Source of the DNA: Candidatus Dojkabacteria bacterium
GTDB taxonomy: Bacteria; Patescibacteriota; Dojkabacteria; B142; OLB20
Direction: 5' to 3'
Assembly: GCA_035444565.1 (NCBI GenBank)
Contig: DAOMOX010000003.1
Span: 159,488-223,487 of the forward strand
DNA length: 64,000 nt
The notes below the pieces were generated by a model, which searched no databases, was not told where the DNA came from, and was given only the letters and a program-made list of their open reading frames with translations. Made by a program: the position numbers and the translations under genes. Below are positions 7,160-49,054 of this stretch, piece by piece. Position 1 is the stretch's first letter, and each line of letters begins with the position of its first letter.

Positions 7160-9077
7160 TTGATAATGTAGCTTTTATTCTTCTAATTCCTGCTCCGCTA
7201 CTCTCTTCTTTTAATATCTTGAATGAACCTTGTTCTCTAATTTGTTCAATCTTCTCAACGTGTGGTCCACCACAGAATTCTTTTGAAATTTCTTCTTCTG
7301 CTTGTTGATCTTTTATAAAGTAAACGGTTACCAAATCACCATAGTTTTTACCAAATTCCATCTCGGCACCTATTTTTTCAGCTTCTGATTTGGGCATTGT
7401 GACTTTTTCAATAATGAGGTCCTTAGCAATATATTCATTAACTAAGTTCTCAACCTCGTGAAGAATTTCCGGTGTTAATTTTTCATTATGAAGGAAGTCT
7501 ATTCGCAATCTTTCAGAGGTAATATTGCTTCCTCTTTGTTTAACGTGCTTACCCAAAGTGTTTTGTAATGCTGCAAGCAACAAGTGATGTGTTGTATGTA
7601 ATGCTGTAGTTCGTTCTGATTGGTCAGCTAATCCTCCCTTAAACTTTCTCTCTGCTCCGGCTCTGCTTTGTGCTTTATGATTTTCAAGTTCCGTATTAAA
7701 TCCATTTAGAATTTCTTCGATTTCTTTCTCATTGTAGTCTCCTGGATCGTTTGCGGAATTTGCAGCCAATTCTTCGATTATCATTTCGATAGGGAAACCG
7801 TATGTTTCATAAATATAAAATGCATCTTTCCCAGAAATCCTCAAACCCATACCTGTATATTTCTGCAGCTCTTTCAATCCTTTGTCTAACGTTTTTGCAA
7901 ATTTTAATTCTTCTTTCTCAAGTTCATTTAATATTGAACTTTCATTTTGTTTTAATTGCGGATAATGTGAGTGCATTCTTTCTATCACTGCCACGGCAAG
8001 TTCCCTTGTGAAATTACCATCCATTTCAAGTTTCCTTGACGTTCTAATCATCCTGCGGATTAAACTACGTAGAATATAACCTTGGTCTTTATTTGCAGGG
8101 ACAATACCGTCAGCGATGATGAAGCTTGAAGCTCTCGCATGATCTGCGAGTATTCTCATACTTGATGTGAATTCATTCTCATTACCTTTATTTTTGTAAG
8201 ATTTTCCGCTTAGTTTTTCTATTTTTTCAATAATTGGGACATATAAATCGGTCTCGAAAATGTCAGTTTTCCCTTGGGAACACATTACTACTCTTTCGAA
8301 ACCTCCACCAAAGTCTACATTTCTCTGGGACAGTTTTTGCCAAGACATATTTTCGTCGAGTTTGTATTCCATGAAGACGGAGTTTCCTATCTCAATAAAT
8401 CTCCCCGAATCATCGTTTATGTGGTATTCGTCTTGTTCAACTGCAATTTGTCCTAAATCGTAGAAAATTTCTGAGCTAGGACCACCGAGCTCCCCAGGCG
8501 CTTCTCCTCGTTGCCACCAATTGTCTGATTTTCCATATGGAAATATACGATATTTGTGTGTCTTGGCCGACTCAAGGTCTGCAGGAATGTTTGTTATATC
8601 CTCAGTGAACTCTGCATCTATACCGTGTGCTTTGAAAACCTCTTTCCATAAATCAATAGAAACATCATCCCTTCCTACTACATCATCTCCACCCCAAACT
8701 GAAACGTACAATCTTTCAAAGTCGAGACCAAAGTGTTTGGTGTAGAGTTCAAATACCCATGGGATTTGCTTTTCTTTAAAATAATCACCTAGAGACCAGT
8801 TTCCCATCATTTCGAACATTGATGTGTGTCGATTGTCTCCTATTTCGGCAATATCCTTAGCTGCTGAACGAAAGGACCTTTGAAAATTACACAATCTTTT
8901 GCCTTTTGGATGAGGTTCACCTGATAAATAAGGTACCAAAGGAAACATTCCGGAATTTGTGAAAAGAATTGTTGGATCGTTAACAGGTATTAATGAGATG
9001 TTGGGAATCTCAGCATGGTTTCTAACAGGGTCTGTCATAAACTCAAAAAAAGCTTTTCTGATGTCTTCTGATTTCAT
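7152..9077 (-). CDS. alaS: Alanyl-tRNA synthetase, short form of 641 aa. It has the catalytic and editing domains but no C-Ala domain.
   Basis: Class II core motifs are LFTNSGM and FEMMGNWSLGDYFK. Editing-domain motifs are HTTHHLL and CGGPHV. The protein ends shortly after the editing domain. Confidence 0.88.
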   Translation of the reverse strand: MKSEDIRKAFFEFMTDPVRNHAEIPNISLIPVNDPTILFTNSGMFPLVPYLSGEPHPKGKRLCNFQRSFRSAAKDIAEIGDNRHTSMFEMMGNWSLGDYFKEKQIPWVFELYTKHFGLDFERLYVSVWGGDDVVGRDDVSIDLWKEVFKAHGIDAEFTEDITNIPADLESAKTHKYRIFPYGKSDNWWQRGEAPGELGGPSSEIFYDLGQIAVEQDEYHINDDSGRFIEIGNSVFMEYKLDENMSWQKLSQRNVDFGGGFERVVMCSQGKTDIFETDLYVPIIEKIEKLSGKSYKNKGNENEFTSSMRILADHARASSFIIADGIVPANKDQGYILRSLIRRMIRTSRKLEMDGNFTRELAVAVIERMHSHYPQLKQNESSILNELEKEELKFAKTLDKGLKELQKYTGMGLRISGKDAFYIYETYGFPIEMIIEELAANSANDPGDYNEKEIEEILNGFNTELENHKAQSRAGAERKFKGGLADQSERTTALHTTHHLLLAALQNTLGKHVKQRGSNITSERLRIDFLHNEKLTPEILHEVENLVNEYIAKDLIIEKVTMPKSEAEKIGAEMEFGKNYGDLVTVYFIKDQQAEEEISKEFCGGPHVEKIEQIREQGSFKILKEESSGAGIRRIKATLSNE

Positions 9078-9522
9078 TGTAGTTGTTTTAACTGGTATTT
9101 GATTAAACCATAAATTTGTATAATTTTCATCTAGTAAAATTAAACCAATTAAAGACTTATAGTAATCCGGGATGCATCGAAGTGTTTTTGAATGGTAGGA
9201 AAGTTGGTAAAATTCCGACCCTTGGTATTCGAATTTTGTGTAACATTAGTGTGGATTTAAATGATTGATGGTTGGGTCCTTTCGAAAAGTTAAAAGAGTA
9301 AATATTTTACACATATGTTATCATAATGACTATCTGGGGGGATTAGGGACTAGTGTTTAATAATTGCACAGTTGTTAGACATTTCCTGAGGGAAGGTGTT
9401 GTGACTAACTATTTTGTGGTACGAAATGTAATACATCTCTCTTTGGAGCGACTTCGTTAAATTTCTTGCAAGAATTTTGAAAAAATCAGGTTTAAATACT
9501 GATCGCCCTCTTGGTCCTGTAG

Positions 9523-12570: not shown

Positions 12571-13785
12571 GTGAAAAATTCATCAAAATACTCCCTAAAA
12601 AATATCAAGAAGACATGGACAAATATAAAATTACCATACAAAATAATTTTTATTCTATTAATTACGCTTTGTATTGGTTTGTTGGGCTACGTAGGTACTA
12701 ATATTTATTTCCAAAATGATATGGAGATATTCAAAGCACCAAAAGCAAATTTTAGAAATTCTGTCACTCTCGTCCCCCCTACTCCGTTGCCACCTAAATA
12801 TAGTGTAATGAACGGTATTCAAGTTGATTATGAAGAATATGATGCGCTTACGCAAAGAAAGCCACTTGCTGTTGTAGTCAATAATCACAAAGATGCGAGA
12901 CCTCAAAGTGGCTTGTCTTCAGCTGATACGGTAATGGAGGTGCTTGCAGAAGGAGGTATAACTAGATATGTGGCAATGTATCATAACAATTATGATGTGG
13001 AAAAAATCGGTCCAATCAGGAGTTTACGATACTATATGATTGATTTTGCAAGTGGTTATGATGATGCAATGATATTGCACCACGGATGGGCAGGATTCGA
13101 TAATGCTGATTTTGAGGTTTACAATGCAGAAACCGATGCAAGGGGTGCTGTTTCAAAATTTAATATAAAGAATATCCAAACCGAAGCCAGTACATATAGA
13201 GATCCCCAGAAAGCCAAAACTTCAGGGTACGTACATTCTTTATATACAGATTTCACGAGAATAAATTCTGAAATATCCCGATTAGCAAAATCATACAACT
13301 GGAATTTAAGTTCTGAAAATTTGAAAGAAATTGCATTCAAGGATGATGCTCCCGAAACTGAGAGAGGACTTTTCTCCTCTGTGGATATTAAATTTATGAG
13401 TTTGGGTGGAAGTGATTATGCATCAAAATTTACCTATGATAAGGTTGGCAACGTATACCCAAGATTCGTTGGTGGGCAAGCAGATATCGATCAATTAACT
13501 AACAAGCAAATTTCTCCAAAAAATGTTATCATTGAATGGCATGAATACGCCGATGCACGTGATGGACACAGCAGAATTGTCATAAAAATGATTGGCGAGA
13601 ATAAAGTGACTATTTTAAGGGATGGTCAGATTATAGAAGGTACATGGCGAAAACAGTCTCGATTGGATAGGACACAATATTTCGATTCTGCAGGAAATGA
13701 AATACCTTTAAATCGGGGTCAAATATGGATTGTTAATGCAGTAAAAGTACAAGACAGGCTAATAAGTACAGTAACTATTCAATAA
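12571..13785 (+). CDS. DUF3048-domain (YerB-like) membrane-anchored protein
   Basis: There is an N-terminal TM segment. The segment PLAVVVNNHKDARPQSGLSSADTVMEVLAEGGITRYVAMYH matches the conserved DUF3048 N-domain. Confidence 0.7.
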   Translation: MKNSSKYSLKNIKKTWTNIKLPYKIIFILLITLCIGLLGYVGTNIYFQNDMEIFKAPKANFRNSVTLVPPTPLPPKYSVMNGIQVDYEEYDALTQRKPLAVVVNNHKDARPQSGLSSADTVMEVLAEGGITRYVAMYHNNYDVEKIGPIRSLRYYMIDFASGYDDAMILHHGWAGFDNADFEVYNAETDARGAVSKFNIKNIQTEASTYRDPQKAKTSGYVHSLYTDFTRINSEISRLAKSYNWNLSSENLKEIAFKDDAPETERGLFSSVDIKFMSLGGSDYASKFTYDKVGNVYPRFVGGQADIDQLTNKQISPKNVIIEWHEYADARDGHSRIVIKMIGENKVTILRDGQIIEGTWRKQSRLDRTQYFDSAGNEIPLNRGQIWIVNAVKVQDRLISTVTIQ

Positions 13786-13810
13786 TATTAACTTAATAAG
13801 TCGTATAAAA

Positions 13811-15106
13811 ATGAATAATAAATATGTGAGGATTTTCTTCTTGTTAGCAATTTCCCTTGTACTGCTTACGGGTTGTAAAAAAGACGATTCATCATCTCAA
13901 AATGGTGATGGTAATAATAATCAAGATCAGGTTACTTTGATTTGGTGGAACATGTTTGATAGTGAACAAAGTGTAAAGCCATTAATTGATGCATACACAT
14001 CAGAGAATCCAAACGTGGTTATTCAATATCGTCAACAAGGAGTTACAGGTGGGGTAACTAGTTATCTTAACCTACTGGATAATGCACTAACCGATACCGA
14101 AGAAATTAACGACCCTGATATTTACACAATAGAAAATACCTGGGTAGGAAAATACAAGGAATATATTTCACCTGCTCCTGCTGATGTTATAGGGCAAGAT
14201 TACTATGATGACTTCTACCCTATTGTGAAGGATGATTTCTATGATGAGAATGCACTAGGTATTCCAATGTATGTGGATGCACTTGCGGTGATTTATAATA
14301 AAGATAAACTTATCGAAGGTGGATACACTGTTCCAGATAATGATTGGAGTGAATTCAAGAATCAAGCAATAAATCTTACTCAAAGAGATCCCAATAGTAA
14401 GATTGTATCTGCAGGTTTTGCAGCTTCTACTGGAACAAATGTACAATTTAATTTCGATATTCTGAGTTTATTAATGTTGCAAAATGGTGCGGATTTGAAT
14501 TCTGCTTCGGTAATTGAATCTTTTTCTACTAACTCAGACGTTATAGGTACATTCGATTTTTATGAAGATTTCTCTGGACCTAATGGATCTTGGGATGATG
14601 AACAGAAATTAGATATCGCTTCATTTCTTGAAGGAAGATTAGCCATGTTCATAGCTCCAAGTTGGAGATTGAATGACATTCTTATTTATAATGAAAAATA
14701 CAACTTAGGATTAGATATTGGTATTGCTGCTGTTCCACAATTAACAGGAACTGACAATATCTCTTGGGGTACATACTGGGGCCAAACTGTCTCAAAAGCT
14801 TCTCCAAATTCTAATGAAGCATGGAAGTTCTTAAGATACATTACACAAGCAGACCAATTAAGACTACTCGATGATACTGTCAAACAAAATGGTCGTAAAG
14901 TTGGAGTATTTTACCCAAGGCTAAGTATGTCTTCTGAAATTTCAGATGATCCGAATCTAAGAGTATATTCACAGGCTATGCCTTTTGCTAAATCATGGTA
15001 TATGAATGATGGATATCTCATAGAGAACGATTTTAATAACTATTTTAAAGAACAAGGTGGTGATTTAGGAAGTTTGGAAAGCACAATTAATTCTACTATT
15101 AATTAA
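13811..15106 (+). CDS. ABC-transporter-type extracellular solute-binding lipoprotein (family 1, sugar/oligosaccharide type). It is an orphan, with no permease or ATPase gene adjacent.
   Basis: The lipoprotein signal is LLAISLVLLTGC. The SBP_bac_1-like composition includes motifs such as LIWWNMFD and AMFIAPSW. The product is 431 aa. Confidence 0.7.
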   Translation: MNNKYVRIFFLLAISLVLLTGCKKDDSSSQNGDGNNNQDQVTLIWWNMFDSEQSVKPLIDAYTSENPNVVIQYRQQGVTGGVTSYLNLLDNALTDTEEINDPDIYTIENTWVGKYKEYISPAPADVIGQDYYDDFYPIVKDDFYDENALGIPMYVDALAVIYNKDKLIEGGYTVPDNDWSEFKNQAINLTQRDPNSKIVSAGFAASTGTNVQFNFDILSLLMLQNGADLNSASVIESFSTNSDVIGTFDFYEDFSGPNGSWDDEQKLDIASFLEGRLAMFIAPSWRLNDILIYNEKYNLGLDIGIAAVPQLTGTDNISWGTYWGQTVSKASPNSNEAWKFLRYITQADQLRLLDDTVKQNGRKVGVFYPRLSMSSEISDDPNLRVYSQAMPFAKSWYMNDGYLIENDFNNYFKEQGGDLGSLESTINSTIN

Positions 15107-15111
15107 ATTTA

Positions 15112-17343
15112 ATGAGCAGACAAATTAAAAGCATACTTATAACTATTATAGTCGTTTTGTTCAGTTCACAAATTGTAACTGCACAATCGACTGATGAAGT
15201 AGTATTACAAAAGCCTTCCGAAGGTTCAACAATAAGCAATACTTATGAAATTGAGTGGAAGATTGTCGATGCTGATATTCAGGATCCTGCTTATTTTATA
15301 GATGTATTTAATCTTGCTTGCTCACAAAATGGTGGAAACCTAGGGAGAATTACCAATTCTGGAGCTGAAGTCGAAAATAATATTTACACTTATTCTTGGG
15401 ATACGTCTTCCGGGGATCTAGGAAATTCACTACAAAACGGAGGAAATTATTGTATGAGAGTATGTGGTATTCTGGCTGATGGAGGTAGTGTATACAGTAA
15501 ATGTGATAAAAAATCTTTTACATTTAGTTCAGAAACTACTGGGACGAACAAACCACCGCAGATTACACCTTCCAAAGATGGATTTAACGTAACGCTTAAT
15601 GAAATCTTTAGTTATAAAGTACAGGCTAGCGATCCAGATGGTGATGAGCTTAAGTATTCATTCCTAAATGCACCTGACTTTTTGACGATTGATTCAAAAA
15701 CAGGACAAATTTCCGGTAAACCAACGGAAGTTGGAGATATACGATTTATTGTAAAAGTAGATGATTCCAAAGGAGGAATTAGCACAGAAGAATTTATATT
15801 AAATATCCAATTAACAAGCGCCGAAAAAGAAGTCGTTTTTGAATTTCCAAAGTCCGGTTCAACAGTTACCCCAGAAAATAATACAATCAAATGGAAGGTA
15901 AAATCAGGTTTAACTGTTAAGTCGATAACACTTAGTTATTCGTCTGATAAGGAAGAATGGACGGAGATTACAAAACAGGATAGAGATTTAGGACAATATA
16001 CATGGAATATTAGTGACATTGAAGATGGAGAGTATTTCATTCAATTTTTACTTGTTGATTCGAATAATAAGCTATATGAAATTTTCAGTGATGGGTTTTT
16101 TGTTTCTGCGCAAGGTACAGTATCGGAAACAGAAATAACTAACCTAACACCAGAAGAGGGATCTACTGTAAATATCAATCGTCCTGTTATTAGTGCAGAA
16201 TTCAAGACACCAGATGGAGTTACTATAGATACTGAAAATGTTAATTTCACATTGAATGAAAGAATTGATCTTACACTTTGTGAAATTACTGCTAATTCAA
16301 TTAATTGTGAAATTGTTAGTGAGTTAAGTAATGATACGTACACTGCATTTATTGAAATTACTGATTCAGAAGGTGCTACCCTAGTCAAGGAATGGAAGTT
16401 TAGTGTTGACACCAATGGTGAGACTTCAGAGGAATCAGAAGATTCTGGAGGCCTTTCTGGAGATTCAATGCAGTTGATTCTCATTATCTTCGCTGTTGGT
16501 TTTCTTCTGATTGCTATACCTTGGAGTATATATTTGATAGTTAAGAAACGAAGAAATAAAGCAACAGAAACCACTAAATTGCCAGATAATACAGTTATCC
16601 ATCCAATTACCCCGATTACTCCTGAACCAGCACAACCGACAATTGGATCACAAGGACTAGACCTCGGTGTCCCAACAAATCCCCCTGTTGTCGATTATCA
16701 ACCTCAGAATTATTCTCTGGGTAGTACTCCAGTGAGCAACAATATGCAACCAGCGGCAGGAGATGTGTATTCCCCGACTGAGAATCTAAATGCATCGAAT
16801 ATACCTCCTGTTCAGGGAACTTATAATCAGCAACTACCTACAGATACATATAACTCTTTAGGTACAAATCCTAGCTATTCAAATCAAAATATAAACCAGA
16901 CTGGTACTCTCGCCGATGCAGTTTTCACAGAGCCAGAAATTGTTCCTGCACAAAATAACCTTGGAAATAATTTAAATCCAACTAATACTCAACCAATAGA
17001 CAACTCCGGTTTAGGCATGAACACTGAAGTATTACCAACGCAGGGAACACCAAATCCAGCTCAGGTTATTGAACCTTCCACCACAACTGATTACGGTTTT
17101 GATAAGCCAATTGTTACTGAACAACCTGCCATGTATCAAAAAGACGAAATTCCAGAATGGCTTGCAACAGATATCCCTGATACTACTGCATCAAACGAAC
17201 AAAATACAGGTGCGTCGACTATGGAGGATGTTTTAACAAAGACTCAGATACAAGAAGGTTCAAAAGTGTACGATCCCTATGGATTGGCTCTTAAAACAGA
17301 CGAAACGGAAGATCCTGATGTACCACCTCAGTTGAATAATTAG
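15112..17343 (+). CDS. Type I membrane surface protein. It has Ig/cadherin-like (He_PIG-like) extracellular domains, one TM helix and a long low-complexity P/Q/N/T-rich cytoplasmic tail.
   Basis: There is a signal peptide. The motif SYKVQASDPDGDELKYSFLNAPDFLTIDSKTGQISGKP is typical of putative-Ig cadherin-like domains. The TM helix is LILIIFAVGFLLIAIPWSIYLIV, followed by KKRRNK. The roughly 270-aa tail is proline- and glutamine-rich. Confidence 0.7.
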   Translation: MSRQIKSILITIIVVLFSSQIVTAQSTDEVVLQKPSEGSTISNTYEIEWKIVDADIQDPAYFIDVFNLACSQNGGNLGRITNSGAEVENNIYTYSWDTSSGDLGNSLQNGGNYCMRVCGILADGGSVYSKCDKKSFTFSSETTGTNKPPQITPSKDGFNVTLNEIFSYKVQASDPDGDELKYSFLNAPDFLTIDSKTGQISGKPTEVGDIRFIVKVDDSKGGISTEEFILNIQLTSAEKEVVFEFPKSGSTVTPENNTIKWKVKSGLTVKSITLSYSSDKEEWTEITKQDRDLGQYTWNISDIEDGEYFIQFLLVDSNNKLYEIFSDGFFVSAQGTVSETEITNLTPEEGSTVNINRPVISAEFKTPDGVTIDTENVNFTLNERIDLTLCEITANSINCEIVSELSNDTYTAFIEITDSEGATLVKEWKFSVDTNGETSEESEDSGGLSGDSMQLILIIFAVGFLLIAIPWSIYLIVKKRRNKATETTKLPDNTVIHPITPITPEPAQPTIGSQGLDLGVPTNPPVVDYQPQNYSLGSTPVSNNMQPAAGDVYSPTENLNASNIPPVQGTYNQQLPTDTYNSLGTNPSYSNQNINQTGTLADAVFTEPEIVPAQNNLGNNLNPTNTQPIDNSGLGMNTEVLPTQGTPNPAQVIEPSTTTDYGFDKPIVTEQPAMYQKDEIPEWLATDIPDTTASNEQNTGASTMEDVLTKTQIQEGSKVYDPYGLALKTDETEDPDVPPQLNN

Positions 17344-20300
17344 TTTAAACTTATCTTTTCAGGAGATTTAATATCGATTGAAGAGATTAATTCTTCGACT
17401 CTCGCTATTGGCTCTAGTTCACTAACGGAAATTGAGACAATTAGTAAATCATCCTCAATTTTAACTTCAGAGCTATCTCTATTGGTGAGGACTAAGTATT
17501 TGTTTTTATAATTTGAATCTTTGGTGATGTGATGGAACCCTGTTAATAAATCTTCTACTTCTACATTGTTTAATTCGAAGCCAGAATTGTTAATAACTCG
17601 AATATCTGGATATTTGTTATAGGAAACTACAACGGTAGGTGTTGGAATTGTTGAGTTTGACTCAACTTGTCCTTGTGATGAGTAATCAAGGAGTGCTGTA
17701 AGTGCTGGTAAGGCTAGAGCAAGACTGATTGACATAGATGCAATTTTCCTAGTACTAATGCCATTTAATGCTAAGTCTATCAAACTGAAAAGTGCATTTA
17801 TACCACCTACAATTGCCATTACACTATTTATTGTAGCCCCAGCAACCTTGTCAAATAAACTTCCAATCCAACCACCAAGTGCAGTAAACGCAGCGCTACT
17901 TACTGTGACAATTATTGCAGATAGAGGCGCTCCAGCTCCCAATGATGCTACTGTTGCACTTCCTGCAATTAATGCCCCTACACCAAATCCAACTGTTGTT
18001 CCAATCGTTGCACCAATCGCTGCTCCAATTCCAGTAATCGGAACACCAAGTGCTGCTAATATTGCTAAACCTGCTACCGAACCTATGGCAGAAAAAATCC
18101 CAGGTAACGCAGCACCTCTGATTGCTAATAGTACTTTGGGAAGAAAAGTGAGATTTGCTGATGCTGCAGCTGGTAATATCCCAGCTAAACTTCTTCCAAC
18201 AAATACCTTAGACATTATCCCCAATAGACTCCTATTTATAGCGCTCATACCTGAGACATAACCCATCATACTTAGATAGTTATTTAACGTTGTGAATTTC
18301 AAAAGAATTGTTTCGAGTAAACTACCTCCACTTTTAAACACGAAGTTATCTTTAAAGAAATCTTTCAGAGCTAGTCCTGGAGATCCACGATGAACATTTG
18401 TAAAATTGTCATACAAATCTTGGATTAGATTTGCCATGACTCTAGTGTTCCCAATTTGAAAGACAAGACGATTAAATGGAAGACCAGATAGTTTGGAGAG
18501 ATAACTACCGTATTTACCTGAAAGCAAGCGTCCTGCGATTGCTTGACCCCGACTTGTTCTAAGGATGTATTTAGCTGATGTAACTAATCCAAAAGTACCA
18601 GCAGTTGCGAGAATAGGATTTATCCCTAGGAAACCAGCTAGTGCTCCAGCTACTAATGCTGTCATAAGTCCAGTCTTAGCAGAGGAAAATAGTCGCGCAC
18701 CAGTACCTCCATATGCATTTCCTCCAGCTTTAGCCAGTTTCGCTGCTGCTTCTGGATTATTCTTTACAATATCGTTGGAAAATACTTTTGTGGTTGGATC
18801 TTTATAAATTGCTGAGCCTTGTTTTTGTAACCATGCAATAGGTCTGATTGGTGTTCGCGGTAATGGTGTATGCATTAAGCTGTCTATGGTTTCTAGTCCT
18901 GCTCCTGCTATTGTGGCACCTGCAAATATCGGCATTAACATACTTGCTGGCACACCTAATGCAGATGCCAAGAACATCGCTCCTCCTCCATACACAGCTC
19001 CTATAGGTGCTTTCTTTAGAAATGTTTTTCCAACGTGTCCAACATCTAATGCAGCGTGATAGGCAGGTTTAATGACTGGAACGAATTTGTTATCTACAAT
19101 TTTGTATACTTTGTCATACTGTGCAAATAGACCATTCTTCATTTCTCCGGGTAGTTTGACAACATTTTTAGCGAGCTTCAAGGTTGAACTCGCGGCTGAT
19201 TGCATTCTTTGTCCTACCGAATTCGTGGAGAAGAAATTCCCCATCCTGGATGCTAATGATGTAGTTTTGAGGACCTTGATACCAGATTTGATAAAGTTGA
19301 CTCCTGAGTCAACAATTTTTTTAACAAGGAATTTAAACACAAGACGCATTATTCCATCAGATTTCTTTGATTTGCGTTTCTGTTCTTTTAAGAAGGTAGA
19401 TTTGTTTGTAACAAATGTCGAAATCTGGTTCCTCTTCATTTTAATACCTTTTCCGAATCGAGACTCCTCTAATTTCTCAGAAAATTTAGAACCAATCCCT
19501 TCATATGCTCTTACAACTTCCTCTTTCAGAGCAATTTTTACGACACCAGGTATATCTTGTCTAAATTGATCTGTGCTTTGTAGACGTGTAAGGTCAATTA
19601 TTCCAGCTTTGAATTGGCCTGATTCAATTTTATTGAAGGCTGTTTCAACTTGCTTTGCGCGAATTAGGTCATTACCTCTAGATAAATAAGGGTCAGTGGC
19701 TATGGCAAGATTGACTTTGGTACTCGCCAAACTTGCTGCAATTCCGCTTTTTGACTCATTTCGTTGAGTGATGTTTTCTTTTACTTTTCCAGACAATCTT
19801 ATGTTTACTTTTGGATCTTCATCAATTTCTCTATCGAGATGTGTAACTTCTTTCTCATCGAGTGAACCTAGGTACTTTGTTTCCAATAGGTCTTCAAGCT
19901 TATCAATCTCTGCTGGATTATATTCACTGAGATTAATTTCACTTACATTTACTCCTGTTAATCCTGTGATGAATTCTTGATATTTGTCAGCTCGGATTCT
20001 CTGGTGTGTATCGTCATACAGATGTTCGAGTGAAGCAAAAAAAGGAACTTCTATGTATTCTGCTGTTTTGGAAGCTTGTAGATTTGTTTTGAAATTACTT
20101 ATAACCTTAACCCTGTCAATATTTTCACGACTATTGGCAAGCTTGTGTTCTTCAATATCGGTATTTTCCACTGCTTCTTCAACAGTCGTTTTTGCCACAT
20201 TAACTTCTTTTTTCTTCAATTCAATGAACGCAGCTCGAGTTGGCTTATACGTGGTGATAACTTTGTATAAAGAGTTGAATGTTTCAGTTAATCCAAGAAT

Positions 20301-20783
20301 TTCTGATTCTTTGCCTGTCAGTTCTTTCTTAATATTTTCATTCCTTCGAGCGTTTTTCTCTTTTATTACGTCGGTTGCAAGTGTGAGATATTCATCATAA
20401 CGAGAGGTGATTTTGCCGTGTAGTTCAGATAATTGTGAGAAATTGTTATATACCACTTCCAGGTCTTTGGGGTCCACATCTGAATCATGAAGTGAATCGA
20501 CAAACTTCTGTGCTCTGTTTAATTTAGTATTTGTACCCTTTACAGTTTTGGCTAAGTCTTCGTTTCTGAATTCACCTGCTTTAGCGTCACCTAAAGCTTT
20601 CATTCGGGCCTCAATTTTTTTAATAGTTTCAATTACATACTTTAAATCCTCTTTATCCTTTTCAGAATAAGCGAAAGCCCTCTGTATTTGTGACAATACA
20701 TAACGTTCTTGTTCTTGAAGTTGTTCTAGCAACTTCTTAAGATCTTCCGGTAAAATATTGTTTTCTGGTATTGCTCCTACCAT
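17340..20783 (-). CDS. Hypothetical 1147-aa bipartite protein. Its N-terminal ~470 aa is a charged coiled coil. Its C-terminal half is Gly/Ala-rich with multiple glycine-zipper-like TM segments. It is the last gene of the six-gene operon.
   Basis: The ORF is long. The N-terminus has K/E-rich heptad-like sequence. The C-terminal segments include AIGSVAGLAILAALGVPITGIGAAIGATIGTTVGFGVGALIAGSATVASLGAGAP. The reverse-strand ORFs 17758..18261, 18565..18807, 19072..19569 and 19984..20400 are antisense artefacts. Confidence 0.7.
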   Translation of the reverse strand: MVGAIPENNILPEDLKKLLEQLQEQERYVLSQIQRAFAYSEKDKEDLKYVIETIKKIEARMKALGDAKAGEFRNEDLAKTVKGTNTKLNRAQKFVDSLHDSDVDPKDLEVVYNNFSQLSELHGKITSRYDEYLTLATDVIKEKNARRNENIKKELTGKESEILGLTETFNSLYKVITTYKPTRAAFIELKKKEVNVAKTTVEEAVENTDIEEHKLANSRENIDRVKVISNFKTNLQASKTAEYIEVPFFASLEHLYDDTHQRIRADKYQEFITGLTGVNVSEINLSEYNPAEIDKLEDLLETKYLGSLDEKEVTHLDREIDEDPKVNIRLSGKVKENITQRNESKSGIAASLASTKVNLAIATDPYLSRGNDLIRAKQVETAFNKIESGQFKAGIIDLTRLQSTDQFRQDIPGVVKIALKEEVVRAYEGIGSKFSEKLEESRFGKGIKMKRNQISTFVTNKSTFLKEQKRKSKKSDGIMRLVFKFLVKKIVDSGVNFIKSGIKVLKTTSLASRMGNFFSTNSVGQRMQSAASSTLKLAKNVVKLPGEMKNGLFAQYDKVYKIVDNKFVPVIKPAYHAALDVGHVGKTFLKKAPIGAVYGGGAMFLASALGVPASMLMPIFAGATIAGAGLETIDSLMHTPLPRTPIRPIAWLQKQGSAIYKDPTTKVFSNDIVKNNPEAAAKLAKAGGNAYGGTGARLFSSAKTGLMTALVAGALAGFLGINPILATAGTFGLVTSAKYILRTSRGQAIAGRLLSGKYGSYLSKLSGLPFNRLVFQIGNTRVMANLIQDLYDNFTNVHRGSPGLALKDFFKDNFVFKSGGSLLETILLKFTTLNNYLSMMGYVSGMSAINRSLLGIMSKVFVGRSLAGILPAAASANLTFLPKVLLAIRGAALPGIFSAIGSVAGLAILAALGVPITGIGAAIGATIGTTVGFGVGALIAGSATVASLGAGAPLSAIIVTVSSAAFTALGGWIGSLFDKVAGATINSVMAIVGGINALFSLIDLALNGISTRKIASMSISLALALPALTALLDYSSQGQVESNSTIPTPTVVVSYNKYPDIRVINNSGFELNNVEVEDLLTGFHHITKDSNYKNKYLVLTNRDSSEVKIEDDLLIVSISVSELEPIARVEELISSIDIKSPEKISLN

Positions 20784-20790
20784 ATGTTTT

Positions 20791-21756
20791 TTATAATCTA
20801 CTATTAATTACTTCAATTTGCTCCCTAATTTGTGCAAGTCGTTCATTCAATTCTTTGGCGTCTCCATCACGATTTAAAATCTGTTCTCTTACGATTCGTT
20901 CTTGTTCTCGATGTTCTTGTAATAATTCGAGACCCTGTTCTTTTGTTTCGAATTCTAAATCCAAGTTTTTTCTAATCTTCTGTTCTTGCTGAGTAATTTT
21001 GTATTGCCTATATAAATTTTGCATTTGCATCTTTACTCCCTTTGGAGTCTGATCAAGTGCAGTATTTAGATTCGATACGTAATTAATCAAACGATATGCA
21101 TCCTGTTCGTCTTTATTCCTGAAAACAACCATTTGATTGTCGTCGTTATACCTTGCAATTATATTATTTAGAATTGTTTCTGCCTGTGCAACAGAGATTT
21201 TTGTTTCTTTTATGTATCCTCTTGCCAGAGGTTCTAGCCCTCGTACTTTTGCAATTGGTTTATTGTACATATCAGATTTATAAAACTTGTAAATCTCTTT
21301 CTTCTTTTCATCTACTCTTAACTCTGGCTTAACGGAAACCCTTTCCATTCCGATTCTGGCTCTATCGATCCGTATCCATTTATCCATTAGTTCTTTTAAT
21401 GTTCGAACAGTAGGTCTTTGTTTCTCATAGCTTTCTACAGTAGTAATTCTTTTCCAAGAGGCTGCTTTGATATAGTCTTCTATGACTCTTGAATCTTTCG
21501 AAAGTTGACCCAGACCAACCAGCCTGGTTTCCTGATCGAAAAGCCCTAAATTGATGTATTCATAATATTTATCTCTTAATTGTGTGATTGATTTCACCAA
21601 TTGCTGTCGTAATTGACCAGTACTCATACCTTGGGGCAGAAAGTCAACTGTGATTAGCTTTGTAAAAGGTTCATCACTTTCTAGGAATTTGATCATCTTT
21701 TTAAGTGATACCCCATTTACAGGATACATTTTGTATTTTTCTATCGATTCTGCCAT
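20791..21756 (-). CDS. Hypothetical 321-aa protein with a C-terminal coiled coil. Operon member.
   Basis: It lies 7 nt upstream of the 1147-aa gene and shares a boundary nucleotide with the upstream gene. I recognise no motif. Confidence 0.6.
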   Translation of the reverse strand: MAESIEKYKMYPVNGVSLKKMIKFLESDEPFTKLITVDFLPQGMSTGQLRQQLVKSITQLRDKYYEYINLGLFDQETRLVGLGQLSKDSRVIEDYIKAASWKRITTVESYEKQRPTVRTLKELMDKWIRIDRARIGMERVSVKPELRVDEKKKEIYKFYKSDMYNKPIAKVRGLEPLARGYIKETKISVAQAETILNNIIARYNDDNQMVVFRNKDEQDAYRLINYVSNLNTALDQTPKGVKMQMQNLYRQYKITQQEQKIRKNLDLEFETKEQGLELLQEHREQERIVREQILNRDGDAKELNERLAQIREQIEVINSRL

Positions 21757-22919
21757 TAGTCAGTTAATAGATATTCGTCTAATGTTAAATATGGATTTTC
21801 AATCCCACTCGTAACGATGTTAAATATTAATTTTTTAAAGTCTGTACTAAATCTAATATCGTATAGTTCAGTCGGAATCCTCAAAGTGTCTCCAACATCA
21901 TCATATAGATATAGTTCCACGAGATGATGATATTTTTCGTATAATGTTGATGCGTCTTTGTGATCTATAAATTTAATTTTATAATAATTCTCAGAGACTG
22001 TATAACCTTCTTTGTGGTATAGGATTAATAAATCCACAATATCTTTGACTAAATTGGTTACGATTTTCTTGTCTAATTTGTTCTTTTTAATCATTAGCTC
22101 AACAAATTCGTTTAGCAATGGATCAATGTGATCAAACTTCTTGTAATAACCCTGAGGGTCATTATCAGCTTCTTTCGAGTTGAGTGACTTCACGTTTGTA
22201 ATCGCTTCTACTGGTTTAAATCCTCTATCAATATAATTGTAAACATCTTTGTCGGTACGAATTACTATGGGTTGTAACAATTCTTTAAAAAGTTCTATTA
22301 GCTCGGATTGATTAAAGGAAACTAAGAATACATAATCAGTGATATCAAAAACATGTTTAAGCATTCTGTGAGCCAAATCTAAATAATTACTGTAACTAGA
22401 CATTGTTGCAGCTATTTGGTTAGTCTTTTTTTCAAGTTCTATAGTCGAATCCAAGTCAACGGATCCATTTTCTAATAATTTGATTGCATCGGGTACATAT
22501 ATTTCTAAAAATACCGGAATATCACTAGGTTCCTTCATAAGCTTTGCTAGTTCAGCCTCCTCTTGTGTTAGTATTCTGACTAAAGAGTACTTTGCAAAAT
22601 ATTTCTTTGCTTGAATAAATCGAAGTGTATAGATGTCTTTCTGAATAATTTTAAATTTCTCGAAAGTATCATCCATCTTCAAGTCGATATCTACTCCATT
22701 TTCTTTTAGTAGCGTCGTAGCGGATGAGTTGTATTTTTGAATAAGTGTCAGCTGATCTTTTGTAAGTGGATTTTTAAGTTGGACTTGATAGTTCTGCGTT
22801 GGATCAAGTAAGAAAATGTAATTAAACACCATAGGTGAAATTGATTTGGCGATGTCTCTCTCTATAGCTATGAGAGTATTGTCCTCAACCTTATGATTTA
22901 CGGCATTTGGATTGGTCAT
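21756..22919 (-). CDS. Hypothetical 387-aa soluble protein. Operon member.
   Basis: The ORF is tightly packed in the operon. It has no TM segments and no motif I recognise. Confidence 0.6.
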   Translation of the reverse strand: MTNPNAVNHKVEDNTLIAIERDIAKSISPMVFNYIFLLDPTQNYQVQLKNPLTKDQLTLIQKYNSSATTLLKENGVDIDLKMDDTFEKFKIIQKDIYTLRFIQAKKYFAKYSLVRILTQEEAELAKLMKEPSDIPVFLEIYVPDAIKLLENGSVDLDSTIELEKKTNQIAATMSSYSNYLDLAHRMLKHVFDITDYVFLVSFNQSELIELFKELLQPIVIRTDKDVYNYIDRGFKPVEAITNVKSLNSKEADNDPQGYYKKFDHIDPLLNEFVELMIKKNKLDKKIVTNLVKDIVDLLILYHKEGYTVSENYYKIKFIDHKDASTLYEKYHHLVELYLYDDVGDTLRIPTELYDIRFSTDFKKLIFNIVTSGIENPYLTLDEYLLTD

Positions 22920-22935: not shown

Positions 22936-24540
22936 TTATTTCTTCTTGCCTTTAAAAATAGCGCCCAGTCCACCAAACACCTGTCCAGCAGCTTTGGATG
23001 TAGTTTGTCCAACTTGTCCCATTGTCTGGCTACTGCTTTGTACATTCAAGAAATTATTCACCATATCAGGAATAGTTGGAGTGGCAAGAAAGATAATATA
23101 TATCACTAATGCTTTTGTGATACTTGCTGATGTCGAAATCTGATCTGATGAATATCCCAATAAAGGTGGTGTGAATCTGAATTCTCCAGCATTGGAAATT
23201 CCAAGTGCCTCACTTCTACCTATGATTATCATTAATAGAAAGACAGCATAAACGACAATGAATGTAATACTTGCCGCCGCTAATGGTTTGATCGCATTTA
23301 TTATTGAGCTTTTTGTTTTGGAAGGAATTGCAGCTATAAAGAATAACCATGGTAGAAATATCGGTGATATGGCAAGAGTAACATAGTTTTTCAATAATGC
23401 TAGGAACAATCTAAACGCAGCCATAAATGCAGCAAGTCCTAACACTAAATCCAGCAAAGTATTCCCTACTTCTTGGAAACCTGCATTATTTGCTGCCTCT
23501 TCTCCTAATGGGACAACAGAACCGACAAATTTCAACAAACCTAAATTTCCAACATCAATACCATCTGGAACAATATTGTTAACACATTCCTCGTCTTCAC
23601 CAGTTCCCTCGCATCTAAAAATCTCTGCATTCGAAGTTCCCCATATAGCCCATACACTTACAAATGGGTCATCTGGTTGTAAATAGTAAAGGTCGGGTTT
23701 GTCGGGATCGTCTTTTGAAATATCAAGATTTGTAGTACTGGTCACAAATTCATAACCGGGTGCTGTAGGAGATGTGAGAAGTGTACTTTGCACAACATTA
23801 CTACCTATAAATATGAAGTCTACAAAGAATCCCGCTATAGGATAACTCAGACTTACCAGAACTAATGAAACGATTAAAGAAGGTATCGAATTTATAATAC
23901 TTACAGCAGTTTGACCTCCCAGTGACTGTCTGAAAAGTATTAAAAATGCTAACACAATAACAATCACAACGTAAAACGCGTAAACCATATTCCTAGACCA
24001 TTGCCATAAATCCAGCATCGGAAGTAATAGATTATATCCTAGTCCTGGGAAGTAGAAATTATTGTTCACAGAATTAAAATTATCATCATCAGGATCCTGA
24101 GCGTAAACACTTAGTAATTCTCTATCTTGAGTTCTTTGGTAGAGGTCATATGCCCAGACAATGGAACTACTAGGTGGTGAAACATACAGTGTGTCGATTA
24201 ATGCTCCTGCACCGTCTATAGCGGAAATACTATTAGGTCCTGGCTGGAATAGATAAACTTCTTGTGCCGATTCTGGTTCACAAGGCGCGGAACCGATTAG
24301 ACAATTCGCTGTATCGATTAGCGCTGGTGCGAAACCTAAATCTTTAGCATAAGTGCTGACTCCTGACCCTGCAATAAACAAAACTACAGCGAAGACAAAG
24401 CCAAATGTAAGTAAAACTTTCTTTTTCATATTAGAAAATTTGGGTAGAAACATTTTAATGTATTTAAATCTAAATTTAATACAGTATATGAATTGGGGGA
24501 TAAGATTGCAAACTCTTAGGAGAAGAAATTTAAGTTTCAA
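22936..24540 (-). CDS. Polytopic membrane protein. It has a signal peptide, an N-terminal extracytoplasmic domain, TM clusters flanking a large acidic Cys-containing loop, and a G/Q/T-rich C-terminal tail. Operon member. The true start is probably the internal MKKKVLLTFGF.
   Basis: The signal-like segment is MKKKVLLTFGFVFAVVLFIAGSGVSTYA. Hydrophobic helices include MVYAFYVVIVIVLAFLILF, LIVSLVLVSLSYPIAGFFVDFIFIG, LDLVLGLAAFMAAFRLFLALL, LAISPIFLPWLFFIAAI, ITFIVVYAVFLLMIIIG and ALVIYIIFLATP. Confidence 0.65.
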   Translation of the reverse strand: MKLKFLLLRVCNLIPQFIYCIKFRFKYIKMFLPKFSNMKKKVLLTFGFVFAVVLFIAGSGVSTYAKDLGFAPALIDTANCLIGSAPCEPESAQEVYLFQPGPNSISAIDGAGALIDTLYVSPPSSSIVWAYDLYQRTQDRELLSVYAQDPDDDNFNSVNNNFYFPGLGYNLLLPMLDLWQWSRNMVYAFYVVIVIVLAFLILFRQSLGGQTAVSIINSIPSLIVSLVLVSLSYPIAGFFVDFIFIGSNVVQSTLLTSPTAPGYEFVTSTTNLDISKDDPDKPDLYYLQPDDPFVSVWAIWGTSNAEIFRCEGTGEDEECVNNIVPDGIDVGNLGLLKFVGSVVPLGEEAANNAGFQEVGNTLLDLVLGLAAFMAAFRLFLALLKNYVTLAISPIFLPWLFFIAAIPSKTKSSIINAIKPLAAASITFIVVYAVFLLMIIIGRSEALGISNAGEFRFTPPLLGYSSDQISTSASITKALVIYIIFLATPTIPDMVNNFLNVQSSSQTMGQVGQTTSKAAGQVFGGLGAIFKGKKK

Positions 24541-24943
24541 TATCTAGTTCGGACAATCTTTTTCTATAATTTGTAGTTTTCTCGAGTTCGTCGTTAATTA
24601 ATTTTATTAATTCCTCTCGATTTTTTTTACTCAGAATCATTAACAAAGACTTAATCATGCCTTCAAAGTACTTTTTCATGTGTTCGTTAACTTTCTCCTG
24701 AACCTCAGGGAATTCAGAATATAATTTGATAAATTCATTTATAAGTTCTTGATTGTCATCTATATCGGCAAGAGATTCTATCTTGTCGTCTAGTCCTTTT
24801 CTTTCAAGTTCCAGATTCACTTCTACTTCAAGATATGTAAGAAAAATCTCTATGTACTCTTCTTGCATTTGAGCCCACATACTGTTCGTATAGCCTAGTT
24901 TAGATTTTACAAATTCTGATACTTTTGGGCTTATGAAGAACAT
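24530..24943 (-). CDS. Small acidic hypothetical protein of 137 aa. Operon member. It overlaps the downstream gene by 11 nt.
   Basis: The ORF is E/D/K-rich and predicted helical. It lies 15 nt downstream of the 1822-aa gene. Confidence 0.55.
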   Translation of the reverse strand: MFFISPKVSEFVKSKLGYTNSMWAQMQEEYIEIFLTYLEVEVNLELERKGLDDKIESLADIDDNQELINEFIKLYSEFPEVQEKVNEHMKKYFEGMIKSLLMILSKKNREELIKLINDELEKTTNYRKRLSELDIET

Positions 24944-24958
24944 AGGTTTTATTTAAAA

Positions 24959-27900
24959 TTATGAAGTAACACTTTTGGCAGTATCTCCTATTACACTTGA
25001 GACGTTCTGAAGTCTATTGTCTGGAACATCAACGTTATCTAGGGCAAGTGCAGACTGTTTGAGTACGTCTTCCGCTCCTTTAACTGCAGCGGCTAATCTG
25101 AGTCGACCTCTTGTGCTATTGAATCTCGGGTTGCTCAATGCTTGTTCAAACGCACTCTCTTGGTTATATAACTCTGCTTCTGATTTAATTGCATTAACTT
25201 TCCTTTTTGACCACAAATCTGCAATTTGAGTAACCTTGTTTGAGATGAAGAAATAGTCAGCGAGTAGTAGTCCGATAGCTGTGGGATTGAGGAATGCTTT
25301 TGACATGATTTGTGCAATTTCAGGATTTACATATCCTCCAAAAATTGAGGCAAGAACACCTGCTGTGACAGTCCATCTTGCGATTTGATCAAATCTAGCG
25401 AAGCCGACCCATTTTTCTTTTTGTTTGCTTGCTTCTGACTTGTATTGAGCTGCGGCTTTTATCATTGTTTGATGGTAGAAGTACAATTCAAGAACCTTTG
25501 TCCTCTCTACTACTACATCTTGGATTGCATTGGTCATTAATCCACTACTATCTGGTAAAGACCTATCATTTTTATTTCCAGGTGTGTGTTGTTTAATTTC
25601 ACCGTAGTTTTGTACTTGTGTTGATTTATTAATACCTTCGAAACTTTTGATTTTCCTCGCTCCAACCCCAGCAGAACTTCTAAGAATTATTGCAGTATCT
25701 ATGTCTTTGAATGTCCGTATGTCTGTGACGTCATTCACTAAATACTGTTTTGTGTGGGGATCTTTTAAATACTTCCCACTTCCATCGGGTCGAAATGTTT
25801 CATTTCTTAATGTTACTGGCAAATCTTCTGGAGATAGCTCTAATAAAGATATACTTTGTTGCGGAGTTAAATGTCTCATTAACGTTACAGGGTCACTATG
25901 GGCCTGTAATTGACTTATTTTTTCTCTCAAATTATCCCTATTAATAATCATCCTTGAGTAGTATTCTCTGATGGCTATTTCTTCCGTTGCTGGAGTAGTT
26001 GCTGTTATAGTAGCTAATTTAGCTTGTGCATTATCTACTTCAAGTTGTGCTGCTTCTATTTCAGTTTTTAAGTTGTCAAATCTCATTTGTAATTGTGCTG
26101 GATCTGTGCGTTGTTTAATCTCTTCTAGGATTTTCCGTTTTGTAAGTTCATCTGTGTCATAGTAACCAGGAATTATCTCAAAAGCCTTTCCTCCAATAGT
26201 CACTATTTCTCGTTCACCACATACACCAGTGGCTGTAGCCTCATACGTCCTAGCAAGTAGATACGCCTGAATATAATCCTTCACATCTTGTAATGGGAGG
26301 TTTTTGCCGTTAATTTTCACAAACCTTCTCTGTTTTTTCCAATCTTCAAGACTTCCTCCAGGTTTGATTGCTTCTACGGCATCTACAGCATCGATTACGT
26401 CTCTTATCGTAAATGTTTTATCATCTTCATGTGCCTTAAGTTGTGCGTCCATAATCGCACTTGAAATTTTATCGAAAGTCCTTCCTTGTTGGATAAAGTC
26501 TTCATCGGTTCCCATCTCCAGTTCTGTTGTATAAACTGATTTGATTCTGAATTGTTTTGTTAAACCTGCCCAGTAGTCAGTCACAGTACCAAGTCGAAGT
26601 TGCATGTCTTTCGGTAGACTTTTTCCGTTTAATGTTTGATTGGGATTGAATGCACCCTTAAGGATATTGTCTATTTCAGCATCTCCATATCCTCTTGCCT
26701 TCAGGCTGGTTCTCATTTTTCCTTTTGAGTTATCTATTTCGGCGAAGAGATTAGCATCGTAATACTTATCAATATCCTCTAATTTAGAATAAACCCCCGG
26801 CTGTCCACCCTCTCCATCAAAATATAAAAGTCCAATTCTATCAGCCGCTAATAAATATGCATGATTCTGTTGTATTTGTGCATGGGAAGTCATTGCTTCA
26901 AGAGTTTCTCTCCAGATAACCTCATATAAGCTTTTCATTTCAAGACCATAGAGATTGTCAATTCCCAATCTTTCTCTCCGGGCTTTATCACTTTCTTTAT
27001 AGAATAACCTAGAACTTTGTAACCTCTTACCAATTTCGGTATATTCCAATCCGAAAGGTAAAAGTCGGTTTCGATTTATCTGTCTAACATCTTTGGTCAG
27101 TCCTAGTTCCGCTAAATCTCTAGGTTTTAATCCTGATTCAGAGAAAAACTTACTTATAATACCTCCGATAATGGGAATTGTTCCAACTACAGGGGTCTCC
27201 ACCTTCTGGAATGAATACCTGACATAATCTTCTTTCGCGAGTAATCCAACGTGTGTTCTCAAATCTACTGCTTCGGATAGATCATATTTATCAGTTGAAA
27301 CTTGTCTTTCAGTACCTATTTCTTCGGTTGTAGGTTTCAGTCCGTCCTCGTTTTGAAGTAGTGAACGATAAATTGAATAAACTCTATTGATTTTGTCATC
27401 AATTTCTTTAAGTCTGTCTTGATATTGTTCATCAGTCCATCCTTCCCTTTCGGCTTGAACTCTTAATCTTCTTACAGCATAGCTTCTGATTTTATTAGTG
27501 TAAATTTTTTCCGTCGTATCACAATACTCACGTGCTGTATGCTCCTTGTCTTCCTTTTTATCTTCTTCTTTATCTTCCTCTTTAACCTCCTCTTTAACCT
27601 CCTCTTTATCTACTTTCGGTGTATACTCTGGTAATTTGAGACCAAGATGTCCGTCCTGATAGATTAGGTCATAGATAAATTCAAGCGTGGATTGAGAACT
27701 TAGTTGATCATATCTAGTTAACCTATTGCTCCATTGAACTATAGTGCTCTTTGTAATTTTGTCTTTATTAGCTGGATTTTCTACTAAATTATTTAAAAGT
27801 CGAATGGTAGCGAGGGATTCGATAGCATTTTCATCTAAGTCTCCCCTATTATTTTTCTTGTTACCTCCTTCTTGAGATTTGTTCTCTATAGTAAATTCAT

Positions 27901-45904: not shown

Positions 45905-45931
45905 ATTTGTAATTTAAATTATCAATTTTAA

Positions 45932-48665: not shown

Positions 48666-49054
48666 TGGAAAACCTTAGAGGGAACGTTGCATTAACCACT
48701 GTTTTGGTATTTTCGGCATTATTTGTCTTTACTGCAATTGTTTTAATTTTCCAGGCATTTGATTTCGCAAATTCTACCACAAGCTATACTAATCAAATTT
48801 ATGCTCAAAATACCGCATTTACATGTTTGGAAGAAGCATATTATAAAATTAGTAGAGATAATCCTGCCTATGCGAACACTGCTATGGAAAGTTTCTCCGT
48901 TGTGATAGACGCAGACAGAGAATGTTCTGCAACAGTCGTAAAAACAAGTGGCAACAATCGGGTTATTAATGTTGAAAGCCAATATCGTTCATCAAGTTAC
49001 AATACTCAAAAAATAATAGCAGATATAACAGCAACTGAATGGGTAATCAATTAA
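48662..49054 (+). CDS. PilX-N-like minor pilin
   Basis: The N-terminus MMENLRGNVALTTVLVFSALFVFTAIVLIF fits the PilX N-terminal pattern (RG-aLvtvL). The product is 130 aa. Confidence 0.55.
   Translation: MMENLRGNVALTTVLVFSALFVFTAIVLIFQAFDFANSTTSYTNQIYAQNTAFTCLEEAYYKISRDNPAYANTAMESFSVVIDADRECSATVVKTSGNNRVINVESQYRSSSYNTQKIIADITATEWVIN

Follow-up and report, generated by a model that had tools for sequence, protein, structure and literature searches.

A six-gene operon of Candidatus Dojkabacteria ends in a new family of glycine-zipper membrane proteins, possible subunits of a cell-envelope complex

We have analyzed a 64,000-nucleotide stretch of DNA (the window) from Candidatus Dojkabacteria, positions 159,488 to 223,487 of contig DAOMOX010000003.1 in the assembly GCA_035444565.1. 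The source organism is an uncultured wastewater bacterium. The gene under study, at 17340-20783 on the minus strand of the window, codes for a protein of 1147 amino acids (aa) that contains a conserved glycine zipper, and it closes a run of six closely packed minus-strand genes (30427-17340, 13 kb, ~4,300 residues) that are found in the same order at related loci. We put at about one in two the probability that the 1147-aa protein is an integral membrane subunit of a cell-envelope complex specific to this lineage (Dojkabacteria-like Patescibacteria) and encoded by this operon; the role that would suit it best is that of a membrane scaffold or of a pore-lining subunit. Patescibacteria, or candidate phyla radiation (CPR), account for a sizeable part of bacterial diversity; their genomes are tiny, they are believed to live attached to other cells, and we know of no description for most of the machinery of their envelope. 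Operons of conserved hypothetical genes occur commonly in CPR genomes. In the literature on Dojkabacteria, on this metagenome-assembled genome (MAG) and on the glycine zippers of Patescibacteria we did not find a description of the six-gene operon.

The open reading frame (ORF) at 17340-20783 runs from an ATG to a stop (1147 codons plus the stop) and had been proposed in an earlier note made from the letters of this DNA (the sequence-only reading). It is a real gene under strong purifying selection. Two proteins deposited from Candidatus Dojkabacteria MAGs under the name 'hypothetical protein', HRN86432.1 and HRP51661.1, are identical to it in sequence, a fragment in an activated-sludge metagenome (L004) is 100% identical, and there are orthologues at 97% and 71% identity. 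The comparison with the 97% strain gave 132 synonymous and 36 non-synonymous differences, a ratio of non-synonymous to synonymous divergence (dN/dS) of 0.074. The gene has no paralogue in the 64-kb window; it is present there as a single copy, and at the related loci as one copy per locus. We observed besides that the synonymous divergence from the 97%-identical DTUPAT2 MAG (L002, 10001-13444) is a mosaic, with dS of 0.02-0.03 in codons 1-470 and 1036-1147 and of 0.28-0.75 in codons 471-1035, which suggests a recombination tract over the part of the gene that codes for the membrane domain. Three antisense ORFs (167, 165 and 138 aa) lie within the gene. One of them is retained in L001 opposite the Gly/Ala-rich part, and their positions differ in the distant relative L007, so they are probably by-products of composition. 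The sequence-only reading had seen them in this way, as spurious products of a high GC content. The GC content is high in relative terms only, 42.5% in the Gly/Ala-rich part and 37.7% in the whole gene against 35.4% in the window.

The earlier note had missed the operon. Read in the direction of transcription, the six genes code for proteins of ~1820, 137, 505, 387, 321 and 1147 aa, and the junctions between them measure 15, 76, 16, -1 and 7 nucleotides (nt). The same order is repeated at eight related loci (L001, L002, L007, L008, L009, L011, L012 and L014) and also at the P0057 locus, with a giant protein of 1307-2207 aa, a small one, a polytopic one of 505-578 aa, one of 374-431 aa, sometimes one of 321-355 aa, and a last gene of 867-1328 aa. 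At every related locus examined the same operon ends with the relative of the 1147-aa protein, after the genes for the 505-like and the 387-like proteins. A profile of its C-terminal module was compared (hmmsearch) with L001, L002, L007, L008, L009, L011 and L012, and at each of them it matched the last gene, with E values from 2e-6 to 8e-83. At the distant locus L007 the 1147-aa relative is 25% identical, the 505-aa partner 36% (E 2e-80) and the 387-aa partner 27% (E 2e-31). Alanyl-tRNA synthetase (AlaRS) and CTP synthase remain 57-58% identical between the same genomes, indicating that the operon evolves fast. The flanks are syntenic as well, with a convergent He_PIG Ig-like protein, SBP_bac_1, DUF3048, a 408-aa membrane protein and CTP synthase, which marks the locus as a core region inherited vertically and not as a mobile element. 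Conserved membership in this operon argues that the 1147-aa protein acts as a subunit rather than forming pores on its own. As a separate observation, in L008 the giant and the small gene of the operon are separated by an inserted DUF772 transposase gene (7820-9172).

We searched for relatives of the 1147-aa protein exhaustively, using HMMER over 1.84 billion representative sequences, and found 27 (E <= 1e-3). Eight are full-length (1087-1169 aa), one of 1302 aa matches from residue 567 on, and about 18 are distant proteins (288-1561 aa) that match the C-terminal module only, residues ~880-1124; the short ones among these are probably fragments. Wherever the source gives a name, it is 'hypothetical protein'. 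Searches with a word index, for the 1147-aa protein and for the 28-sequence alignment, returned two close orthologues only, presumably because low-complexity words swamped the candidates, and the exhaustive search was needed. A pattern scan of genome contigs, for which coiled-coil patterns had been chosen, recovered the same MAG and nothing else. Pfam, NCBIfam, PHROGs and PADLOC gave no meaningful match for any of the six operon proteins (E <= 0.01 for Pfam and NCBIfam), and Pfam scans of the individual members at E <= 1 (28 relatives of the 1147-aa protein and 30 of the 505-aa protein) found no family common to more than two of them. Sequence-profile searches of the PDB (A1, A2 and A4) returned only coiled-coil noise in residues 4-220 (myosin, HA2; E >= 0.006). 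The sequence-only reading had pointed to pore-forming, holin and EsaA/Pip-like folds. Foldseek found no significant match for the AlphaFold2 (AF2) model of the 1147-aa protein, either in the PDB (best E 0.64) or in the BFVD (best E 2.9e-3, template modelling score, TM-score, ~0.07). On the evidence of these searches all six components appear to be new, none of them matching a known family or fold. The 1147-aa protein defines a new protein family, made of a glycine-zipper hairpin, a helix with the motif GxWxGxxFD, two further transmembrane (TM) helices, a linker (CxnC or Thr/Pro-rich) and an alpha/beta domain of ~90 aa.

The top rows of the BFVD comparison were tape measure and minor tail proteins, all non-significant (E >= 2.9e-3, TM-scores ~0.07). 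Tape measure proteins are also long and mostly helical, coiled-coil-like towards the N-terminus and with hydrophobic segments rich in Gly and Ala, and one could think of a phage-derived tape measure protein or of a prophage remnant. We read the resemblance as one of gross character and not of homology. The family had no match in 2.9 million viral contigs, 50,697 phage genomes and 72,556 plasmids, there was no PHROG or Pfam match, and no capsid, terminase, portal or tail genes are found nearby. Unlike a tape measure gene, this one belongs to a chromosomal core operon devoid of phage genes, with housekeeping and surface-protein genes as neighbours, and it keeps its chromosomal position in genomes whose AlaRS is just 57% identical. 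A phage origin is thus scarcely credible.

The layout of the 1147-aa protein was derived from hydropathy, composition and charge and from the AF2 model (10-sequence family alignment, mean predicted local distance difference test, pLDDT, of 58.6). All its parts lie on the minus strand. Residues 1-470 (19374-20783) form a charged, all-helical domain with acidic and basic residues, devoid of a signal peptide and predicted to be cytoplasmic. Its helices reach 58 residues, the pLDDT is 75-92 at aa 80-340, and the motifs NSRENVDRVK (218-226), TDPYL (363-367) and LDLTRL (396-401) are conserved in the alignment A2. This domain had been described as a cytoplasmic coiled coil of 470 aa. It is indeed helical and probably cytoplasmic, although heptad periodicity rises above the shuffled null at aa 73-186 only, so that the head is better described as a helical domain with one coiled-coil-like segment. 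Residues 471-590 (19014-19373) follow with Lys-rich amphipathic helices of net charge +16, the most amphipathic of the protein (hydrophobic moment 0.65 at 487-504), which AF2 models with a pLDDT below 45 and which probably lie along the cytoplasmic face of the membrane.

The membrane domain occupies aa 593-1033, with about nine passes (three hairpins and three TM helices) and two basic loops between them. Three hydrophobic stretches of ~40 residues are each split mid-way by a conserved turn (ALGVP, LGINP and LGVPIT), and since AF2 gives helix-turn-helix for each we read them as helical hairpins. Hairpin 1 is located at aa 593-632 (18888-19007; AF2 helices 571-608 and 613-638) with the turn ALGVP, and hairpin 2 at aa 700-740 (18564-18686; AF2 helices 694-719 and 723-755) with LGINP. 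The conserved basic loop between them, aa 633-699 (18687-18887), carries the motifs WLQxQGSALYKD and NxxGxxGARLF and has nine Lys+Arg to four Asp+Glu. A second region, aa 741-889 (18117-18563), is basic and partly amphipathic (17 Lys+Arg, five Asp+Glu) with a conserved NNYL; both loops would be cytoplasmic. The Gly/Ala-rich membrane bundle at aa 890-1033 (17685-18116) contains hairpin 3 (890-941, turn LGVPIT) and the TM helices 943-975, 980-1009 and 1014-1033, and it is the module common to all the distant relatives. Last comes aa 1034-1147 (17343-17684), a Thr/Pro linker (STIPTPT; 1034-1054) and an alpha/beta domain (1055-1135) that is predicted to be extracellular. AF2 folds this domain as beta-alpha-beta-beta-beta-alpha with a pLDDT of ~80, and its net charge is -8.

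The plan proposed by the sequence-only reading, a helical head joined to a polytopic membrane domain and a C-terminal globular domain, thus holds broadly, and the ~100-aa soluble domain at the C-terminus is confirmed by the model; its most likely extracellular location had been missed. The part played by small residues was overstated. The supposed domain of ~650 aa made of small-residue helices shrinks to a zone of ~155 aa that is truly Gly/Ala-rich (881-1035; Ala 20%, Gly 14%), and about half of the 650 aa is basic cytoplasmic loop or amphipathic helix. The stretch that had been quoted as an example, AIGSVAGLAILAALGVPITGIGAAIGATIGTTVGFGVGALIAGS, is present at residues 899-942.

With regard to topology, the protein has no signal peptide and its first hydrophobic segment appears at about aa 593. 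Hairpins keep sidedness, so the three single TM helices would place the C-terminus opposite to the N-terminus. The charges of the loops and the acidic C-terminus follow the positive-inside pattern expected for N-in, C-out, with the two basic loops inside and the last ~100 aa outside. The relatives add two independent indications. Sixteen of the 28 have just two cysteines in their entire sequence (up to 1561 aa), and these make up a CxnC pair directly after the last TM helix, which fits an extracellular disulfide. Besides, P0012, a distant relative of 1561 aa, has in its N-terminal part (residues 595-638) a J-domain-like segment with the HPD motif, fitting a cytoplasmic N-terminal part; its match to Pfam DnaJ (E 9.4e-6, 26.1 bits) falls just under the cut-off of 27.8.

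This arrangement bears on the YhgE/Pip and EsaA proteins. The sequence-only reading had named membership in YhgE/Pip, or in another characterised transporter or receptor family, as the result that would speak against it, and we found no such membership; neither NCBIfam (N- and C-terminal pip_yhgE models) nor Pfam gave a match at E <= 0.01, and there was none in the 28 relatives at E <= 1. A phage receptor or a component of type VIIb secretion, whether a member of this group or an analogue, is suggested by the similar size (these are also large polytopic proteins, ~900-1000 aa), by the C-terminal cluster of TM helices and by the monoderm type of host. However, YhgE/Pip and EsaA have an N-terminal TM helix, then a large extracellular domain and then the C-terminal TM bundle. 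The layout found here is the opposite one, with the large domain N-terminal and probably cytoplasmic. Nor are there type VII secretion partner genes: we found no EssC (FtsK/SpoIIIE) or WXG100 domains in the operon or its flanks, and none of the six proteins has a Walker A motif. We therefore disfavour this explanation as highly improbable.

A nearly invariant feature of the bundle is the glycine zipper G913...G918...G924xxxG928xxxG932xxxG936 (aa 913-936; 17976-18047, minus strand). Among the 28 relatives, which share 14-37% identity with the window protein (71% for the closest orthologue), G913, G928 and G932 are present in 28 of 28, G936 in 25, G918 in 24 and G924 in 23. Next to it the motif GGWIGSLFDK (aa 970-979; 17847-17876, minus strand), at the predicted outer end of a TM helix, retains G970 in 26 of the 28, W972 in 22, G974 in 27 and D978 in 27. 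Judging by this conservation, G924xxxG928xxxG932xxxG936 together with GxWxGxxFD can be taken as the signature of the family. The earlier claim of GxxxG/AxxxA-type repeats stands in this form and not as a matter of numbers: the counts of GxxxG and small-xxx-small were not clearly above those of composition-matched shuffles of the same region (z 0.1-2.1), so that the zipper rests on its conservation.

The pattern of the transmembrane glycine-zipper motif class, (G,A,S)xxxGxxxG conserved in a hydrophobic helix, is found here, with a glycine at every fourth residue of a TM helix throughout the family. The GxxxGxxxG class was reportedly described by Kim et al. in 2005 for VacA, MscS/MscL, KcsA and others. 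Known glycine-zipper helices pack tightly, often within homo-oligomeric channels. It is a motif class and not a homologous family; the 1147-aa protein has no sequence or fold match to its members, and its zipper sits in a multi-domain protein of a six-gene operon. The tight helix bundle or pore-forming assembly that had been proposed is compatible with the conserved GxxxGxxxGxxxG helix, which would fit tight packing or the lining of a putative pore.

The same helix could be invoked for a stand-alone pore-forming toxin, a holin-like lysis protein or a bacteriocin-type glycine-zipper effector, and Pfam Gly-zipper models matched below threshold in one relative each (E 0.006-0.012). Such an effector would hardly have 1147 aa with a cytoplasmic head of 590 aa, and the gene is single-copy, core, syntenic and under strong purifying selection. 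No endolysin, immunity or secretion-system gene is adjacent, and the gene is always found within the same multi-gene operon. Holins are small (usually <200 aa), with one to four TM helices and the gene beside that of an endolysin; here we have 1147 aa with ~9 membrane passes, and no lysin domain in the neighbours. All this makes a toxin or lysis protein very unlikely.

The partners encoded with the 1147-aa protein all lie on the minus strand. The 505-aa protein (22936-24453) is polytopic and the best conserved component, with a signal peptide, two outer regions with Cys pairs and ~6-7 TM helices. Its mechanical ORF has 534 aa from a TTG (22936-24540), but the homologues all have ~500-505 aa and the protein read from the internal ATG at 24453 is 100% identical to a database entry over 505 aa, so the real start is probably 24453. 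Its AF2 model (30-sequence alignment, predicted TM-score 0.59) had no Foldseek match in the PDB (best E 0.97). The giant protein (~1820 aa; 24959-30427) is very acidic. In its relatives there is a single hydrophobic hairpin ~100-170 aa from the C-terminus, and the window protein has a weaker hydrophobic stretch at the same place, read by eye and below the hydropathy threshold. We noted in it an HExxH motif at residue 664 (HEVQH), which reads HEVRH in the 63%-identical L001 orthologue, too close a relative for this to count as conservation; it has no match to a peptidase model. The others are soluble or small: the 137-aa protein (24530-24943) is acidic and helical, the 387-aa protein (21756-22919) is soluble and conserved at most related loci, and the 321-aa protein (20791-21756) is soluble and helical, without a TM segment, and detected in close relatives only; L007 and L014 have a gene of similar size (331-355 aa) at its position.

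Among the relatives of the 505-aa protein, P0059 is the most distant and belongs to a different cluster (L013, 8500-16066). Its neighbours there are a secreted Cys-rich protein of 492 aa, a hairpin-anchored one of 836 aa and one of 393 aa with an SH3_3 domain. The 836-aa protein is built along the same lines as the 1147-aa one: its head is helical and cytoplasmic, a basic amphipathic stretch and a single TM hairpin come next, and the outer C-terminal domain, rich in Cys, gives a sub-threshold match to Peptidase_M23 (E 1.4e-3). We found no homology between it and the 1147-aa family by hhalign. A head, a hairpin anchor and a variable outer domain beside a 505-like protein may be a more general plan, possibly related to the cell wall.

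Could the operon be a divergent scaffold of the type IV secretion or conjugation kind, with proteins like VirB6, TrbL or TcpH? These are also polytopic, some of them with large cytoplasmic extensions, and are subunits of multi-protein envelope machines. The 505-aa partner has a generic VirB6 look (signal peptide, outer domain, 5-7 TM helices, large loop), and the L013 arrangement, in which a 505-like protein stands beside a hairpin-anchored one with the sub-threshold M23 match, recalls the cell-wall hydrolases found in conjugation systems of Gram-positive bacteria. However, no model of TrbL/VirB6, VirB4, VirD4 or VirB8 matched, no VirB4-type or other ATPase is located alongside, no Walker A motif is found in the operon, and nothing was found in the 72,556 plasmids. 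The 836-aa protein of L013 shows no homology to the 1147-aa family either, and the model of the 505-aa protein lacks a fold match. The case is a weak one and such a scaffold is quite improbable.

Returning to the subunit of a lineage-specific envelope complex, we can sketch how it might be built. About 590 N-terminal residues would lie in or along the cytoplasmic face, followed by the three hairpins and the three TM helices. The glycine-zipper and GxWxGxxFD helices would pack tightly, between copies of the 1147-aa protein or against the 505-aa partner, and the packed helices might form a membrane platform or a narrow conduit. The cytoplasmic head would dock the soluble partners of 387, 321 and 137 aa and the giant hairpin-anchored protein, and the C-terminal domain would be displayed at the cell surface. 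Oligomerisation, physical interaction with the partners and channel activity are all suppositions of this sketch. Since the operon has no nucleoside triphosphatase (NTPase), the complex would be structural, passive or driven by the membrane potential, and not by ATP. A more specific proposal, which we offer tentatively and hold to be possible but not probable, is that the operon is an unrecognised envelope machine lacking an ATPase in which the 1147-aa and 505-aa proteins make a zipper-lined conduit or an anchoring platform that couples the giant scaffold to the surface domain. Such a platform might serve, for example, as a site of contact with the host cell, or in the uptake of host-derived lipids and metabolites, which these reduced bacteria are unable to make themselves.

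Several points weigh against the envelope complex as we have described it. Physical interaction among the six operon proteins is a presumption. The giant, 137-aa and 321-aa components are recognisable at the distant loci by position alone, and the syntenic flanks imply that the conservation of the neighbourhood is partly general colinearity and not functional linkage beyond the operon. Glycine zippers are also found in membrane proteins that are not channels, and neither the packing of the helices nor the number of TM segments is established by the AF2 model, with a pLDDT of 30-50 in the membrane bundle.

The main rival is a complex that shapes the membrane or anchors a cytoskeleton, with the giant and the 1147-aa proteins acting as wedges or tethers for cell shape, division or polar attachment, and no transport. 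The two large proteins consist mainly of highly charged helical sequence on the cytoplasmic side, with short hydrophobic hairpins as anchors and no classical transporter fold. The basic amphipathic helices of aa 471-590 would suit binding in the plane of the membrane, the operon lacks an NTPase motif, and it is passed on vertically as a core locus with housekeeping genes on either side. However, the best conserved elements are the zipper within the membrane and the polytopic 505-aa partner with its disulfide-type outer loops, which point to a function across the membrane, and the C-terminal domain, predicted to be extracellular, is also conserved. We consider the rival unlikely.

A conduit or host-contact function, if it were shown for the envelope complex, would make this an envelope system of a new type; should the 1147-aa protein be no more than a structural membrane protein, a new protein family and a topology model would still be gained. 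A 13-kb operon under purifying selection is a large investment for a reduced genome, more than 1% of it for a genome size that we take to be ~1 Mb. The 1147-aa protein offers the clearest experimental handles, namely the invariant zipper, GxWxGxxFD and a small surface domain for antibodies or localisation. By analogy, the operon may be compared with lineage-restricted operons of other wall-reduced bacteria, such as the gliding genes of Mycoplasma mobile (gli123-gli349-gli521-p42), which code for large, fast-evolving, lineage-restricted and mainly extracellular proteins. The two would share very large lineage-restricted proteins with few TM anchors and no recognisable domains. They differ in that there is no homology, the bulk of the Dojkabacteria proteins is predicted to be cytoplasmic, and there is no known link to motility.

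We have also examined the neighbours of the operon. Convergent to it, on the plus strand at 12571-17343, are the genes for a DUF3048 protein, an SBP_bac_1 solute-binding protein and a 743-aa protein with He_PIG Ig domains. This last one combines a signal peptide with a single TM helix and a long tail rich in Pro, Gln and Asn, and the stops of its gene and of the 1147-aa gene overlap by 4 nt. At most of the related loci examined the operon is flanked by the SBP_bac_1 gene and by an Ig-domain protein, and DUF3048 is present at four of them; L007 has no Ig-domain protein. On the other side, divergent from the operon, a gene at 30609-32276 (plus strand) codes for a 555-aa low-complexity protein rich in Gln, Asn and Pro, with one C-terminal TM helix that gives it a tail-anchored look and no Pfam match. 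A gene for 555-563 aa is found at the same position in L001 and L002, with a partial orthologue match in L001 only. Further along the window, at 44396-58758 on the plus strand, there is a cluster of the type IV pilus kind with a T2SSE ATPase, a T2SSF platform protein and several N-methyl (pilin-type) proteins. Its pilins are unusually large, among them one of 381 aa with LamG and one of 919 aa with leucine-rich repeats (LRR) and LamG, and a 2319-aa beta-helix protein adjoins them.

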